From Squalus acanthias (lineage: Eukaryota), in assembly GCA_030390025.1 (NCBI GenBank), contig CM059432.1, positions 58,654,001 to 58,718,000 of the forward strand: a DNA stretch of 64,000 bases, given 5' to 3'. Both the position numbers and the translations under genes were made by a program. The notes under the pieces were generated by a model. The model was given only the letters and a program-made list of their open reading frames with translations, did not search any database and had not been told where the DNA came from. Below, one piece after another: positions 32,564 through 41,374 of the stretch; within the stretch, counting starts at the first letter, position 1; the number at the start of each line of letters is the position of its first letter.

Positions 32564-33745
32564 ATAGAGTTATACAGCACAGAAAGAGGCCCTTCGGCCC
32601 ATCGTGTCCACGCCGGCCATCAAGCCCTGTCTATTTTAATCACATTTTCCAGCACTTGGTCCGTAGCCTTGTATGCTATGGCGTTTCAACTGCTCATCTA
32701 AATGCTTCTTGAATGTTGTGAGGGTTCCTGCCTCTACCACCCTTTCAGGTAGTGAGTTCCAGATTCCAACCGCCCTCTGGGTGAAATTTTTTTTCCTCAA
32801 ATCCCCTCTAAACCTCCTGCCCCTTACCTTGAAACTATGCCCCCCTGGTTATTGACCCCTCTACTAAGGGGAAAAGTTCCTTTCTATCTACCCTATCTAT
32901 GTCCCTCATAATTTTGTACACCTCAATCAGGTCCCCCCTCAGCCTTCTCTGCTCTAAGGAAAACAACCCCAGCCTGTCCAGTCTCTCTTCATAGCTGAAG
33001 CGCTGCAGCCCAGGTAACATCCTGGTGAATCTTCTCTGCACCCTCTCCAATGCAATCACATCCTTCCTATAGTGTGGCGACCAGAACTGCACACAGTATT
33101 CCAGCTGTGGCCTAACTAGCGTTTTGTACAACTCCATCATAACCTCCCTGCTCTTATATTCTATGCCTCGGCTAATGAAGGCAAGTATCCCATATGCCTT
33201 TTTAACCACCTTATCTACCTGTCCTGCTGCCTTCAGGGATCTATGTACATGCACGCCAAGGTCCCTCTGATCCTCTGTCCTTCCTAGGGTCCTACCATTC
33301 ATTGTGTATTCCCTTGCCTTGTTAGTCCTCCCAAAATGCATCACCTCACACTTTTCAGGGTTAAATTCCATTTGCCACTGTTCTGCCCATCTGACCAACC
33401 CGTCTATACCGTCCTGTAGCCTGAGGCTTCCCTCCTCGCTATTTACCACCCCACCGATTTTCGTGTCATCTGCAAACTTACTGATCATACCTCCTACATT
33501 CATATCTAAATCATTAATGTACACTACAAACAGCAAAGGACCCAGCACCGATCCCTGTGGTACACCACTGGACACAGGCTTCCAGTCACAAAAACAACCT
33601 TCGACCATCACGCTTTGCCTCCTGCCACTAAGCCAATTTTGGATCCAATGTGCCAAGTTGCCCTGGATCCCATGGGCTTTTATCTTCTTGACCAGTCTCC
33701 CATGCGGGACTTTGTCAAAAGCCTTACTGAAGTCCATGTAGACCA

Positions 33746-33939
33746 TGTCGTAAGAATGAGCCTTACGCGTGGTGAACTTAAAGTAAGCTTTAATCAACTA
33801 AAAAGGTGCTACATACAAAAGAGGTCTTACTCTATGCCTCTCCAGGATCCAACTGATCAGTCCAGTATATATCCTGGACTAATCACAGGAAGTGATGCAA
33901 TAAAGTTCGAGTCACAGGAAGCTGTATTGTGTTACCACA
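33746..33939 (-). repeat. 3' LTR
   Basis: 3 mismatches versus 37976-38169. Confidence 0.95.
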
Positions 33940-34302
33940 TTCTGCCCCCCCCCCAAAAGATTAGGAGGCCGGGATGAAGTTCGAGTCACAGGAAGCTGTA
34001 TTGTGTTACCACATTCTCCCTCCATTTCGTAGCCGCTGGACGAGGGAGAGCCGCACCCGTTTGGGTTCTCGTAGCGGTAGAGGGCCCCTAGCCCGTTTAC
34101 CCGCCGCGGGCCGTGGACCAGAGTCCGAGTGATCCAGCCCGCTCTGTGAGGGGTCAGGACGATCCTGACTGTGTACTGGTGCCCGAACGGGTGTCGGGCA
34201 GGGCTGTGGCAGATCCGTTTCCGAGCGTACGGTACAGGGTGGATCGTGGCTGCGTGTGCGAGCCCCGACGGGCTCATAGTCAGTCTGCCCCAGGTCGGCA
34301 CG

Positions 34303-37300
34303 CTAGAGTGAGGTACCAGCCGGCGTCAGATCCAGATCATGATGAGAGGCACCTGGCGAGCCCAGAGATGTGCCTGGTACAATATCATCCCCTGGTGTCC
34401 CTCTATGTTTCGGCGGGCAGGGAGCCAGATCCCGCAATGACACGGTAGATTCCTGACCGTCAGGATACTGAATATAGGCGTAGGTAGGGTTGACATCAGT
34501 GAGCTCAACCTCATCTACCAGGGGATCATTCTTAGATGCCCGGACATATCTTCGGAGTAGCACTGGTCCCGGTGCAGTCAGCCACGACGGGAGAGATATC
34601 CCATAGGATGAGCGACGCTGAAATCGGAAGAACCGTTCATGAGGCGTCGTATTTGTGGCGGTCGAAAGGAGGGACCGTGTGGAGTGTAATGCGTCTGGAA
34701 ATACTGCTTCCCATTGCTGGTTGGGTAGGCCCCGAGATCTCAAAGCCAGACGTACCGCATTCCAGATGATAGCGTTAAAACGCTCGACTTGCCCATTCCC
34801 GACCGGGTGATAAGGCGTCGTTTTGCTGGCAGCAATACCCCGTTCCGAGAGATAGGCCTTGAGTTCTCCTGACATAAAAGAAGGGCCCCGATCCGAATGA
34901 ACATAGGATGCCATGCCACAGAAAGCAAATACCTGCTCAAGGCAGCTGATAACCGTGGTCGTCAGCATATTGGGGCAGGGAAAGGCAAACGGAAAACGGG
35001 AATACTCATCGACCATGGTCAATCGATAAGTGTTGCGAGTTGAAGAGGGCAACGGCCCCTTAAAATCGATGCTAAGCCGTTGCATTGGCTGGGTCGCATG
35101 TATGAGTATACCACCCGAGGGGCGGAAAAACCGAGGTTCCAATTCCGCACAGACTCTGCAGTCCGAGCACATCTTCTTTACATCCCCGGTAGAGAATGGG
35201 AGATTTCGGGACCGCACGAAGTGTAGCATGCGAGTAAAGCCCGGATGACACAACCCATCATGGATGTCTACGAGCGTAGAGGGTGCAATGGCGGAGCAGA
35301 ATGCTCGTGTGAGGGTATCCGGAGCCACATTCTCCTTGCCAGGTCGATAGTGGATGGTGTAACCAAAAGAGGCCAATTCCAGCCGCCAAAGCTGAATTTT
35401 ATTATTTTTAATTTTGGTCCGTTTTCGATTATCGAGCATGAAGGCGACCGATCGCTGGTCCGTGATTAAGGTAAAGTGCTGGCGAGCTAGGAGATGACTC
35501 CACTTCCGTACTGCCTCTATGATGGCTGTAGCTTCTTTCTCGACTGGAGGATAATGTAGCTCAGCCCCTTGAAAAGTCCTGGACAAAAATGCCACCGGAC
35601 GACCTTCCTGATTCAGAGTGGCCGAGGTTGCCACCTCCGAGGCATCACACTCAACGACAAAAGGAAGACTCTCATTGATGGAGTGGAGTCGCTTTCTCCA
35701 ACTGTTTTTTCAGGAGGTTAAAGGCTGCAACAACCGCTGTGTCTAGTGGGAATGTGCTGGCCTTCAGTAGAGGTTGGATTCGGTCCGAGAAGTTAGGAAT
35801 CCATTTAGCATAGTATGCAAACAGGCCGAGGGCCCGGCGCAAGGAGGCCGGATTCTTAGGTGGCGGGAGTTCTTGGAGTGGGCGAAGCCTTTCAGGGTCA
35901 GGTTTAATGATGCCATTGCCCACACAATAGCCAAGGATGTTGATGGTTGGTTGTGACTCAATGGATTTAGCCGCATTTAATGTCAAATTACGGTACTGGA
36001 GTGCGTCCCAAAATCGTTGGAGATTGGCGTCATGTTCCCGCTGATTGTGACCTGCGACAGTAATATTGTCCAGATAAGGAAACGTATCCTTCAAGTCTTC
36101 CTGTTTGACCAGGTCATCCATTGCTCGCTGGAAGACAGCCACTCCATTAGTGACCCCAAAGGGGAGGCGACGAAATTGATACAGCCGTCCATTGGCTTCA
36201 AAGGCCGTATACTGCTTGTCTGAGACCTTCAAGGGTACCTGATGATAGGCACTTTTTAGATCATATGTTGAGAACACCGTGTACTCAGCCAATTTATTAA
36301 CCATATCATCGATGCGCGGCAATGGGTATGCGTCCAAGTCCGTATATTGATTGATGGTCTGTGAGGTTGTAGAGGGTTCTTAACAATAACGACCTGGGCG
36401 CGCCATGGCGACGAACAAGGCTCGATGATATCCTCTGCTAAAAGCCGAGAAATCTCAGCCGCAATAAAAGACTGGTCTTCCTGACTGAAACGTCGTGACT
36501 TTGTTATAATCGGTTTGCATCGAGGAGGGATACTGGAAAACAGTGAGGGTTCATCCAGTGAAGCTGCTGACAATGCACAGAACGGTAATCGAGGTAGTAT
36601 ATTAGAAATAGTGAGTTCAGGTTTGGATCCGCCGAACTCAATGGTGAGCTTCTTATGCTGCTTTTGAAAATCCAGCCCTAAGATAAGATCACTACATAAG
36701 TCCTTGAGCACCGAAAGCCGGGTGGAGGGATACCTGCGACCATTAAGTGTTATTTCAACCATACAAAAGCCAGAAATTCTGGTATTAAGTGATGACTGAG
36801 CCATCGCAACTGCCTGGTCCGATGGGAAAACATGTAGCTTTAACTCTGCAACAATCTGTTCCCTAATGAAACTATCAGTGCTACCTGAGTCAATTAAGGC
36901 ATCTAAAGTATGTCCATTAATTGATGCTTTTGTAGCTGCATGGAATAGGTTCTGAGGACAAGCAGCTGTAATTGGTGTCGTTGCACAAAGAGTGGCTGAA
37001 ACTCTAGGTGTGTTTCTTCGAGAGGAAGCACGATAGATTTTAGCCGGAACATCTTGATAGGCCCTTACCGGGGCAGTTCGGTAGGACTTAGCTTGATAAG
37101 CCCTCGTAGAGGCTCTTGATAGGCAAACCTTTGCAAAATGACCCTTTTTGTTGCAATGACTGCAAAACGCATTGCGAGCAGGGCAGAATTTCCGAGGGTG
37201 GAACTCATCACCACAAAAGAAGCATTTCTTAGATTGCCAAGAGGCTGCCACAGTGGGGTCATCATCCTCTTCATCAGTGAAGTCATCAGATTGATCGTCA

Positions 37301-37897
37301 GGGATAAAGACCTCCCTAATAGAGTTCACCTGTGGCCTCTTAAATTGCCTGACTGTAGTTAAGACAGTAGACCGAGGTCTGGGCACTGTATAAAGGTCTG
37401 CATTTCTTTTTGCCAGATCTAGAGAGCAAGCCATGTCATAAGCTTTCTGAAGCTCAAGTGTCTTACTTTCCAGTAGACGCTGGCGTATAAATGGGGAGGC
37501 AAGCCCGCAGATGAAAGCATCACGGATCATTTCTTCACGGTACAGCTCAGCCGAGGCCGCCCGAAAGTTACAGTCCATACTAAGTCTGCGAAGCTCTTGG
37601 AGGAATCTATCAATGTTGGGCTGTAGCTAGTAGATGTCTGGCATAGACCTCATTCGGTGTCTTAGTATATAGTCTCTTAAGCGTCCGAATTGCCTCCTCA
37701 TAACTGGCCCATTTCTCCACATACTGAAATACATTCGGGGTGACACAGTTGATGAGTATCCGCAACTTTGAGTTATCATCAGCCTTACAATATTCAAGAA
37801 AATTGTCAAACGTGCGATACCAGTGTTTCCACACCTTACCGGCTGCTGGGGTGTTTGGGTCCAAGTCAAGATGCGATGGTTTAAGGATGTTTTCCAT
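34303..37897 (-). pseudogene. Gypsy gag-pol polyprotein, disrupted by short deletions and frameshifts
   Basis: CFFCGDEFHPRKFC and CSHCNKKGHFAKVC; ALIDSGS protease; LPFG and YLDN RT; EKEATAII, TDQ RNase H; HDGLCH..CSDC, SIDFKG, HSDRG, GQVER integrase. Confidence 0.93.
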
Positions 37898-37975
37898 GAT
37901 GGGTGATTCCCTGGATCCTTAGTTCCGAGTTCGTCCAAAAAGTTTGAGTGCGAAGTTTTCCAAAGTTGATTAAAT

Positions 37976-38169
37976 TGGCGTAAGAATGAGCCTTACGCGT
38001 GGTGAACTTAAAGTAAGCTTTAATCAACTAAAAAGGTGCTACATACAAAAGAGGTCTTACTCTATGCTTCTCCAGGATCCAACTGATCAGTCCAGTATTT
38101 ATCCTGGACTAATCACAGGAAGTGATGCAATAAAGTTCGAGTCACAGGAAGCTGTATTGTGTTACCACA
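37976..38169 (-). repeat. 5' LTR
   Basis: Precedes gag on the minus strand; TATA-like ATAAATA (38102-38096) and ATTAAA. Confidence 0.95.
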
Positions 38170-40000
38170 GACCACATCAACTGCACTACCCTCATCCACA
38201 CATCTAGTCACCCCCTCAAAAAATTCAATCAAATTGGTCAGACATGATCTCCCCCTGACAAAGCCATGCTGACTATCCTTGATTAATCCTTGCCTCTCCA
38301 AGTGGAGACTAATTCTGTCCCTCAGAAATTTTTCCAATAATTTCCCTACCACTGATGTTAGGCTCACTGGCCTGTAATTCCCTGGTTTATCCCTACTACC
38401 CTTCTTGAATAATGGTACTACGTTAGCTATTCTCCAGTCCTCTGGCACCTCCCCTGTGGCCAGAGAGGTTCTGAAAATTTGTGTCAGAGCCCCTGCAATC
38501 TCCTCCCTTGCCTCACACAGCAGCCTGGGATACATCTCGTCTGGGCCTGGGGATTTATCCACTTTTAAACCTGCTAAAACCGCTAGTACCTCCTCCCTCT
38601 CAATACTAATTTGTTCAAGTATATCACAATCCCCCTGCCTGATTTCTATGCCTACATCGTCCTTCTCCATAGTGAACACAGATGCAAAATATTCATTTAA
38701 AACCCCACCTACATCTTCCGGCTCTACACACAGATTGCCACTTTGGTCCCTAATGGGCCCTACTCTTTCCCTGGTTATCCTCTTGCCCTTAATATACTTA
38801 TAAAACACCTTGAGATTTTCCTTTATTTTGCCCGCCAGTGTTATTTCATGCCCCCTCTTCGCTCTCCTAATTTCTTTTTTAAGTACCCCCTGGACTTTCT
38901 ATACTCCTCTAGGGCTTCCACTGTTTTTAGTCCTTTGTATCTGCCAAAAGCCTCCCTTTTTTTCCTAATCCATTCTCGTATATCCCTTGACATCCAGGGT
39001 TCCCTGGGCATGTTGGTCCCACCCTTGACCTTTACGGGAGCATGTTGCCGTTGTACTCTCTCTATTTCCTTTCTGAAAGATTCCCACTGCTCTGATGTGG
39101 ATTTTCCTACAAGTAGCTGATCCCATTCCACTTTGGCCAGATCCTGCCTTATCATATTAAAATTGGCCTTCTCCCAATTTAGAACCTTTATTTCCGGTCC
39201 ATCTTTGTCCTTTTCCATGACTACCTGAAATCTCACCGAATTATGGTCACTGTCACCAAAATGCTCTCCTACAGACACTTCTACCACTTGCCCGGCTACA
39301 TTCCCTAGAATTAGGTCCAGTACCGCCCCCTCTCTTGTAGGACTTTCTACATGCTGGCTCAAAAAGCTCTCCTGGATGCACTTTAAGAATTTCGCACCCT
39401 CTAAGCCTTTCACACTCTGACTATCCCAGTTAATATTGGGGAAGTTGAAATCCCCTACTATTATTATCCTATTATTTCTACAGTTCTCTGAGATTTGCCT
39501 ACATATCTGTTCCTCTATCTCACCCTGACTGTTTGGGGGCCTATAGTACACTCCCAGCAAAGTGCTTGCCCACTTTCTGTTTTTAAGTTCTACCCATATG
39601 GCCTCATTAGAGGAACCTGCTAAGATATCATCCCTCCTTACAGCAGTAATTGACTCCTTGATTAATATTGCGACACCCCTCCTCTTTTACAGCCCCCTCT
39701 GTCTCGCCTGAAGTTTCTATACCCCGGAATATTGAGCTGCCAGTTCTGCCCCTCCCTCAACCATGTCTCTGTGATAGCAACAATATCATACTCCCATGTG
39801 TTCATCAACACCTTCAATTCATCTGCCTTACTCGCAAGACTCCTTGCATTAAAATAAATGCCATCCAGCCTTGCCATACTCCCTTGTGCCGTTACATATT
39901 TGCTCTGCCTTCCAGGCTGACTTGTTTTTGCTCTATATTTGGCTGTGCATCACCCCCTACTATAGCTCCACTCCGTATCCCATCCCCCTGCCAAGTTAGT

Positions 40001-40951
40001 TTAAACCCACCCCCCCGCAACAGTACTAGCAAACCTCCCCGCAAGGATGTTGATCCCGTTCCGGTTCAGGTGCAACCCGTCCGACTTGTACAGGTCCCAC
40101 CTTCCCCAGAAACAGACCCAGTGATCCAGGAAACTAAAGCCCTCCCTCCTGCACCAACTCTTTAGCCACACATTCATCTGCTCTATCCTCCTATTCCTAT
40201 ACTCACTAGCACGTGGCTCCGGGAGTAATCCAGAGATTGCAACCTTTGAGGTCCTGCTTTTTAATTTGCTACCTAGCTCCCTAAATTCTTGTTGCAGGAC
40301 CTCATCCCTCTTTCTACCCATGTCATTGGTACCAATGTGAACCACGACCTCTGACTGTTCGCCCTCCCCCTTCAGAATGCTCTGCAGCCGTTCAGTGACA
40401 TCCTTGACCCTGGCACCAGGGAGGCAACATACCATCCTGGAGTCACGTCTGCGACCACAGAAACGTCTATCTGTTCCCCTTACGATAGAATCCCCTATCA
40501 CTATTGCTCTCCCACTCTTTTTCCTCCCCTCCTGTGCAGCTGAGCCAGTCGTAGTGCCACGGACTTGGCTCTTGCTGCATTCCCCTGAGAAACCCTCTCC
40601 CCCATCAGTATCCAAAACGGAAAATCTGTCGGAGAGGGAGATGGACCCAGGGGACTTCTGCACTACCTTCCTAGTTCTTTTACTCTGTCTGGTGGTCACC
40701 CATTCCCTGTCTGCCTGTGCACTCTTTACCTGTGGTGTGACCACCTTGTTAAACGTGCTATCCACGAAGATCTCAGCTTCGCGGATGCTCCACAGTGACT
40801 CCAGCCGCAGCTCCAGCTCCGAAACGCGGATTTCGAGTAGCTGCAGCTGGAGACACTTCCTGCACATGTGTTCGCCCTGGACACCTAAAGTGTCCCTGAC
40901 TTCCAACATAGCACAGGAGGAGCACTCCATGTTGCCGAGCTGCCCTGCCAT
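40001..40951 (-). CDS. CR1 ORF1 protein, 316 aa (zinc finger/leucine zipper + SGNH esterase)
   Basis: CSSC..HMCRKC, LEIRVSELELRLESL, GDSIVRG, HIGTND, DGLHLN; open frame. Confidence 0.93.
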   Translation of the reverse strand: MAGQLGNMECSSCAMLEVRDTLGVQGEHMCRKCLQLQLLEIRVSELELRLESLWSIREAEIFVDSTFNKVVTPQVKSAQADREWVTTRQSKRTRKVVQKSPGSISLSDRFSVLDTDGGEGFSGECSKSQVRGTTTGSAAQEGRKKSGRAIVIGDSIVRGTDRRFCGRRRDSRMVCCLPGARVKDVTERLQSILKGEGEQSEVVVHIGTNDMGRKRDEVLQQEFRELGSKLKSRTSKVAISGLLPEPRASEYRNRRIEQMNVWLKSWCRREGFSFLDHWVCFWGRWDLYKSDGLHLNRNGINILAGRFASTVAGGWV

Positions 40952-41374
40952 GTCCTACCCTTAATTTACTCCCTTTAAATTAAAGAATATTAAATACACT
41001 AGGGACCTTACTTCCCTTTAAACACTACTTACTCCAAACTAGAGACCTTACTTTTACTTTAATGACTAGAATGTAGAAATTATATAATAGTCTAGACGAG
41101 AAATTGCCATAGAGTTATTCACAATGCACAAGGAATCCAGAGGACGAAGAATTGGAGGTGGAGCATGAGGTAACTAAGTAAAGGCTTAGATGCCAGGCCT
41201 GGTTATTGAGCATTCAGATGATGATCTCAGGGTCTTGCCATTAAAACACAAATGCTTGCAGAGCCTCCAAATCATATGAAGGCTCTACAATGATTCACTA
41301 AAGATGTCCGGCAGGTAGCTAGAGTAGAAGCAGAATTCAATGTCATCCTTTGAAACACTATTCAGTGAATTAAA

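Follow-up and report, generated by a model that had tools for sequence, protein, structure and literature searches.

A Ty3/Gypsy retrotransposon of Squalus acanthias likely to prime reverse transcription with its own RNA, and a self-priming signature across its clade

Structure and setting of the element

The window analyzed here is the whole stretch of 64,000 nucleotides from contig CM059432.1 of Squalus acanthias, and all positions are counted from its first letter. It contains on the minus strand (33746–38169) a Ty3/Gypsy LTR retrotransposon with a total length of 4,424 bp. Its features, following the sense direction of the element, are:

33746..38169, minus: Ty3/Gypsy LTR retrotransposon, 4,424 bp, inserted within the RT gene of a CR1-type LINE
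38170..38174, minus: target-site duplication TGGTC, 5 bp, left copy
37976..38169, minus: 5′ LTR, 194 bp, TG...CA
38096..38102, minus: TATA-like ATAAATA between inverted arms, function putative
38019..38029, minus: predicted self-primer AGTTGATTAAA, its last six bases being the poly(A)-type hexamer ATTAAA
38006..38018, minus: hairpin from the first base past the predicted cut (G·U, then C-G), kept across families
37978..37998, minus: U5-end hairpin, outer pair copy-specific
37964..37974, minus: predicted primer-binding site (PBS) TTTAATCAACT, 1 nt past the 5′ LTR, lacking TGG and able to pair with the LTR segment
36256..37897, minus: Gag with two CX2CX4HX4C fingers, protease and the beginning of RT, spread over two frames
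34303..36379, minus: RT, RNase H and integrase, spread over two other frames
33977..34013, minus: additional copy (37 nt) of the LTR start, following a purine-rich stretch
33940..33954, minus: polypurine tract, immediately before the 3′ LTR
33746..33939, minus: 3′ LTR, 194 bp, differing from the 5′ LTR at 3 sites
33741..33745, minus: target-site duplication TGGTC, 5 bp, right copy

The Pfam domains detected in the element were protease, RT, RNase H and integrase, with no match to Chromo or SH3_Tf2-1. This copy is spread over four frames, with breaks near 37.6 kb, 36.35 kb and 35.7 kb, and a sister family of the same genome includes many single frames of 1,315 residues. Our count of 3 differences over 194 LTR sites reproduces that of the original prediction and indicates a young insertion.

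The LINE that received the insertion (about 32835–40954, minus strand) is of CR1 type and carries a GDSL-esterase ORF, an endonuclease and an RT split by the Gypsy element. The 37-nt duplicate of the LTR start lies 74 nt before the true 3′ LTR and is found in L184 and not in L183; it may have been left by plus-strand priming that occurred at a cryptic purine tract.

The region following the 5′ LTR pairs with the LTR itself

As a rule, LTR elements are primed by a tRNA. The 5′ LTR of the present element (38169–37976, read on the minus strand) ends with ACGCCA and is followed by one A (37975) and then by TTTAATCAACT (37974–37964), with no TGG matching a tRNA CCA end at the PBS of the window element. 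TTTAATCAACT is the exact reverse complement of AGTTGATTAAA (38029–38019), the two being separated by a 44-nt loop. The missing TGG and the perfect complementarity of this 11-mer to the element's own LTR, both claimed in the original prediction, were confirmed. The overlap of the putative primer with a poly(A) signal was likewise found, ATTAAA (38024–38019) making up the last six bases of AGTTGATTAAA. The paired segment and its ATTAAA are identical in both LTRs, and among 200,000 shuffled LTRs, 31 contained the 11-mer. For the 66-mer, folding gave −18.5 kcal/mol (z −5.3), a value equaled by 0 of 200 shuffles; for wider windows of 111–141 nt, z was only about −1, no better than shuffles. Since there is no tRNA site and the 11 nt located after the 5′ LTR pair with this same LTR, self-priming is likely.

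A 7-bp stem GCGTAAG/CTTACGC had also been proposed within the loop, at the end of U5. Its outer G-C pair is specific to few copies: C37978 was present in only 2 of the 30 fetched copies of the family, the other 28 and the 3′ LTR ending with GACA without this base. The U5-end stem was not conserved across the clade and exceeded chance in two families of this genome only.

The pairing is maintained across related families

Relatives were gathered through a Gag alignment as 80 metagenome loci (the best 80 of 91 confirmed). Together with the window element and one sister copy, they formed 23 families at 80% gag DNA identity, a number that does not correspond to 23 hosts, many families coming from few assemblies. 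The anchored set comprises 20 of these 23 families, the region being truncated or decayed in the three that were dropped. Five anchors were placed by hand, the better-pairing one being used where two were possible, and each family was represented by its lowest-numbered anchored locus.

We observed a pairing of at least 10 bp with the family's own LTR in 18 of the 20 families, vs. 12 of 380 cross-family pairs; the two exceptions exhibited broken runs of 6 and 4 bp. Among all anchored copies, the run reached at least 10 bp in 49 of 65 and was shorter in the 16 others. At PBS positions 7–14, beyond the shared hexamer, own matches averaged 7.2 of 8 vs. 4.2 in cross-family comparisons, and 0 of 100,000 permutations reached the observed sum of own pairing, in a test that ignores kinship among the families. 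Several Watson-Crick pair types occurred across families at positions 5–16, and pairing was present in 12 of the 20 families at position 16 and in 3 at position 17. The duplex measures 10–21 bp across the clade, and the LTR copy lies 24–73 nt from the PBS. Wherever a 3′ LTR was present, it confirmed that the LTR ends 1 nt before the paired segment, and 5-bp target-site duplications were found in the 5 relatives checked for them.

Compensatory changes in related families had been named beforehand as the test of the complementarity, and the contrast between 18/20 and 12/380 strongly favors it. In L069, one substitution is shared by both LTRs and accompanied by the complementary change in the PBS, and both sides of the duplex have changed in L104 and L130. 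Such a three-way change would follow from the copying of the primer into the PBS during plus-strand synthesis; selection for pairing could produce the same result. On these sequence comparisons, complementarity to the own LTR is a trait of the clade, not an oddity of the window element.

Copies and sister families in the same genome

For the family of the window element we obtained 829 candidates, scored 40 and fetched 30 copies, and the predicted PBS was intact in all 30. A second family, with a largely different U3, displayed a 13-bp pairing in 53 of 54 distinct loci, and a third related family was also recovered in this genome. A pattern covering both primer and PBS gave 3,211 matches genome-wide (0 for the reversed control). 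A search with the Gag of the Narcine type returned 150 matches at 41–46% identity, largely corresponding to the sister family already known here.

We also looked for covariation among the copies of this genome, numbering positions from the predicted cut. At position −7, we counted 23 variants in the PBS, 15 in the LTR and a single complementary double variant, against around 0.05 such doubles expected from a hand estimate. The double variant is confined to the 5′ LTR together with the PBS; the 3′ LTR is unchanged, and the three-way pattern of templated copying is thus missing. No complementary double was observed in this genome at position −9. These within-genome counts fall short of establishing covariation in this genome.

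A second helix adjoins the predicted cut

A stem of at least 4 bp starting at +1, the first base past the predicted cut, was found in 15 of 20 families vs. 5.0 expected, in a post hoc test of a pattern already seen. The expectation was obtained by shuffling the loop with its first 4 nt fixed, and 0 of 100,000 simulations reached the observed count. The first pair of this helix is G·U in 15 of the 20 families and the second C-G in 19, while pairs 3–4 vary on both sides. Constrained folding recovered the helix in 13 of 21 rows vs. 4.0 expected. Because it begins directly after the primer duplex, the predicted cut falls at the junction of two helices.

The three-duplex "pretzel" of the Tf1 type was not found by folding over 21 rows, in which the duplex adjacent to the 3′ side of the PBS averaged 5.0 bp (5.2 in shuffled sequences) and the U5-end hairpin 4.6 (4.9 shuffled). 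Two other candidates were rejected. A self-cleaving ribozyme at the cut had a sole Rfam match, far below threshold (E 2.9), and ribozyme self-cleavage would leave a cyclic phosphate. As for splicing inside the LTR, the GTAAG...TTTTTAG interval, located by eye, spans just 33 nt, its joining would not lengthen the match, and the AG at −11/−10 is not kept across families.

Proposed mechanism and alternative explanations

One nt separates the end of the duplex from the terminal CA of the LTR, and the 3′ end of the primer points toward U5. We consider it likely, on the strength of sequence patterns, that the element primes reverse transcription with its own RNA and that the clade as a whole bears a self-priming signature. 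The self-priming suggested by the original prediction gains support from the pairing being kept letter for letter in most related families.

The genomic RNA would fold back, bringing the LTR segment onto the PBS, and would be cut just after AUUAAA (between 38019 and 38018), presumably by the element's own RT/RNase H as in Tf1, with the helix junction possibly marking the bond to be cut. From the new 3′ end, minus-strand DNA would begin at the LTR edge and extend into U5, and the first strand transfer would use the R sequence located between the cut and the poly(A) site. Plus-strand synthesis would then return the primer sequence to the PBS, so that LTR and PBS stay matched. In the 5′ LTR, this duplex of primer and PBS probably masks the poly(A) hexamer as well; the hexamer of the 3′ LTR has no PBS behind it and would stay free.

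The last point leads to an alternative that we regard as unlikely, namely that the duplex merely hides the 5′ poly(A) signal and that priming is ensured by something else. In nearly all families, the paired segment has an A/T-rich hexamer at its end (AATAAA or ATTAAA in many), as such masking would have it, and a hairpin occludes the 5′ poly(A) signal of HIV-1. However, families with other hexamers (TCAAAA, AGAAAA, TTTTAA, GTTAAA) retain the pairing, the register of 1 nt from the terminal CA is needed by a primer and not by a mask, and no alternative primer site is visible.

Alternatively, the primer could come from the 3′ R, where the genomic RNA or a co-packaged RNA carries this segment again and would be cut past the hexamer. 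The sequence is identical in both LTRs, and a 3′ copy would make available the pairing that extends 2–10 nt upstream of the conserved G at −10, whatever the start site. Still, the 5′ copy lies just 24–73 nt from the PBS and folds locally, and cutting the 3′ copy would presumably lose the R sequence required for the first strand transfer, so that we hold this origin of the primer to be quite improbable.

Slightly less probable again is priming by a host tRNA fragment, with a secondary LTR match. The window 11-mer may resemble a segment of a tRNA D-loop. Priming by half-tRNAs is reported in Copia lineages (accessible text of PMC6317226). Yet the 20 families display 17 distinct PBS 11-mers that follow their own LTRs, which a shared tRNA primer cannot explain, and priming by a tRNA would bring the PBS back to the tRNA sequence. 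In a comparison with 7 distinct host tRNAs (Lys and Cys, taken from 30 of the 63 scored loci), the longest run was 4 bp, and no tRNA was matched by Rfam at the PBS site. Finally, it is most improbable that DNA-level templated repair keeps the inverted repeat perfect with no role of the RNA: the sole double variant in this genome, restricted to the 5′ LTR plus the PBS, agrees with it, but it leaves unexplained the fixed register, the missing tRNA site, the second helix and the way in which more than 3,000 copies replicated. Priming by the element's own RNA thus remains the reading that we retain.

Where the primer would begin

In Tf1, the RNA's first 11 bases anneal to the PBS, and the cut made by RNase H falls between bases 11 and 12 (accessible text of PMC7175516). 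The original prediction cautioned that the primer of the present element may be internal, and this caution stands, as a TATA-like box is kept 84–103 nt before the predicted cut in the three families of this genome: ATAAATA was found in 30 of 30 fetched copies of the window family, and the two sister families have a similar box. The primer may thus be internal, unlike that of Tf1, lying in a longer leader whose 3′ end primes. Across the clade, no TATA box occurred at a fixed distance, and most other families have no such box. In the window element, the box is flanked by 9-nt inverted arms (box and arms together at about 38085–38112, minus strand), which are perfect in the L183 subfamily.

A G at −10 is kept in 19 of 20 families. 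It often lies in an initiator-like YAGT context and may mark the start site. The drop in pairing past about 16 nt and this near-invariant G fit a start 11–16 nt before the cut. The pairing often extends 2–10 nt upstream of the G. None of the reads of one raw-read RNA run fell on the stretch, and the RNA contigs contained no start, end or poly(A) junction.

Relationship to known elements

Elements can be assigned to the self-primed class when at least 10 bp complementary to their own LTR begin 0–5 nt after the 5′ LTR; here, 11 bp begin 1 nt past it, with no TGG. The Tf1/Tf2 elements of S. pombe, Tj1 of S. japonicus and the Tf1/sushi chromoviruses share with the clade the Ty3/Gypsy domain order (PR-RT-RH-IN) and a PBS complementary to about 11 nt of the own LTR without tRNA site (accessible parts of PMC7175516, PMC4600332, and PMC10085805). 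In contrast to Tf1/sushi, the clade has neither chromodomain nor pretzel, its Gag carries two CCHC fingers, its duplex measures 10–21 bp, its primer ends with a poly(A)-type hexamer and is possibly internal, and a G·U/C-G helix stands at the cut. No Chromo or SH3_Tf2-1 domain was present in 9 full-length clade proteins, nor among the precomputed domains of the 120 homologues listed, many of them partial. Judged by chromodomain and pretzel, the element is not of the Tf1/sushi type; the original prediction had said this of its Gag. Since chromodomain and pretzel are both lacking, the clade probably works like Tf1 without belonging to Tf1/sushi.

Paired CCHC fingers are a trait of Mag elements, and two strict CCHC fingers were recovered in 50 of 72 full-length homologues; of the "Mag-like" Gag initially proposed, this trait is the only part that we could retain. 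The Mag lineage also resembles the clade by its short LTRs, mostly 5-bp target-site duplications and one or two ORFs, but mosquito Mag elements have PBSs for tRNA-Leu/Ser/Arg (accessible text of PMC3286476), whereas TGG was found at the PBS start in none of our 20 families. CsRN1 and Saci2 are, likewise, non-chromovirus Gypsy elements of animals. They differ by a CHCC Gag, a tRNA-Trp PBS and a 4-bp duplication in CsRN1 (PMC2582038, in part), and by a CCCH Gag (PMC2582038, in part), tRNA PBSs and a 4-bp duplication (PMC12471100, in part) in Saci2, against two CCHC fingers, no TGG and 5 bp in the window element. A supposed link to PwRn1 proved wrong. In plants, self-priming of the Gypsy chromovirus Tcn1 and of the Copia element TAR was predicted by the criterion given above; these belong to other lineages and hosts, and the accessible text mentions no link with a poly(A) signal (PMC6317226).

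Homologues carried the names of Nematostella, Xenia, four crustacean genera, Trichuris, Trichinella, Scyliorhinus and Narcine; no relatives were found in viral contigs, and an ESM Atlas search returned generic Gag clusters only. Searching the same genome with SH3_Tf2-1 (PF24626) yielded, among the 8 of 33 matches fetched, env-bearing retrovirus-like elements (L173–L180) and not chromoviruses, and a Chromo search for outgroups gave 16 matches. In a quick RT tree with unlabeled Gypsy and retroviral outgroups, 58 of the 68 rows formed the clade on a long branch (SH-aLRT 100); the tree contains no labeled Tf1, sushi or Mag/SURL sequences, and we left the clade without a lineage name. The PBS pairing was assessed for the tree rows with DNA context, all located within one subgroup of 44 rows. 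Ty3 scored 114 bits vs. about 300–400 within the clade, in different databases.

Previous reports and significance

Self-priming has been reported for Tf1/Tf2/Tj1, fungal and vertebrate Tf1/sushi elements, plant Tcn1 and the Copia element TAR (accessible parts of PMC6317226, PMC10085805, PMC4600332, PMC7175516, PMC5341516, PMC2864245, and PMC6934838). Its occurrence in vertebrates was already inferred for Tf1/sushi (PMC10085805, in part), TAR suggests more than one origin (PMC6317226, in part), and a different, non-complementary type was proposed for Skipper (PMC5006619, in part). Self-priming itself is therefore already known, vertebrates included. The signature of the clade was not described in the accessible portions of the literature searched, a scope outside which lie subscription journals and Repbase; it was absent in particular from those of PMC3601003, PMC6238403, PMC8556966, PMC12471100, PMC3286476, PMC9873768, and PMC2582038. 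Four peptide motifs had no match in the supplement files searched of PMC6238403 and PMC8556966.

If our reading is correct, a large and recently active clade, whose homologues carry names from cnidarians, crustaceans, nematodes and cartilaginous fishes, uses a poly(A)-signal segment as primer, which would represent a probable further origin of self-priming. Kapitonov and Jurka reportedly described self-primed Gypsy elements from Nematostella in Repbase, in which case the clade would be known in part. To our knowledge, self-priming has been shown experimentally for Tf1 only. Such elements would be missed by PBS-based annotation tools, and the clade would presumably lie out of reach of control by 3′ tRNA fragments. 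From the conserved junction, an exact scissile bond can be predicted, so that the cutting by an RT of its own RNA could be tested beyond fission yeast.

A more ambitious scenario, which we put forward tentatively and consider possible rather than probable, combines four proposals: an undescribed and independent emergence of self-priming, in a Gypsy clade that is animal-wide and not of the chromovirus type; a single helix serving at once to hide the 5′ poly(A) signal and to provide the primer; a cut at a two-helix junction marked by a conserved G·U; and, in the families of this genome, a primer that would be the 3′ end of a longer capped leader rather than an 11-nt 5′ end.

Additional observations

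The three families of this genome grouped in the RT tree with crustacean and cnidarian elements, with which they share 67–75% RT identity vs. 59–62% with Scyliorhinus/Narcine elements. Forcing them together with Scyliorhinus/Narcine was rejected (p-AU 0.0005), for a group chosen after seeing the tree. This grouping may reflect horizontal transfer or old paralogous lineages. Elsewhere, at G000:C1:566514-575071, three LTR-PBS junctions are spaced by 4,247 bp, which suggests a head-to-tail array with shared LTRs.
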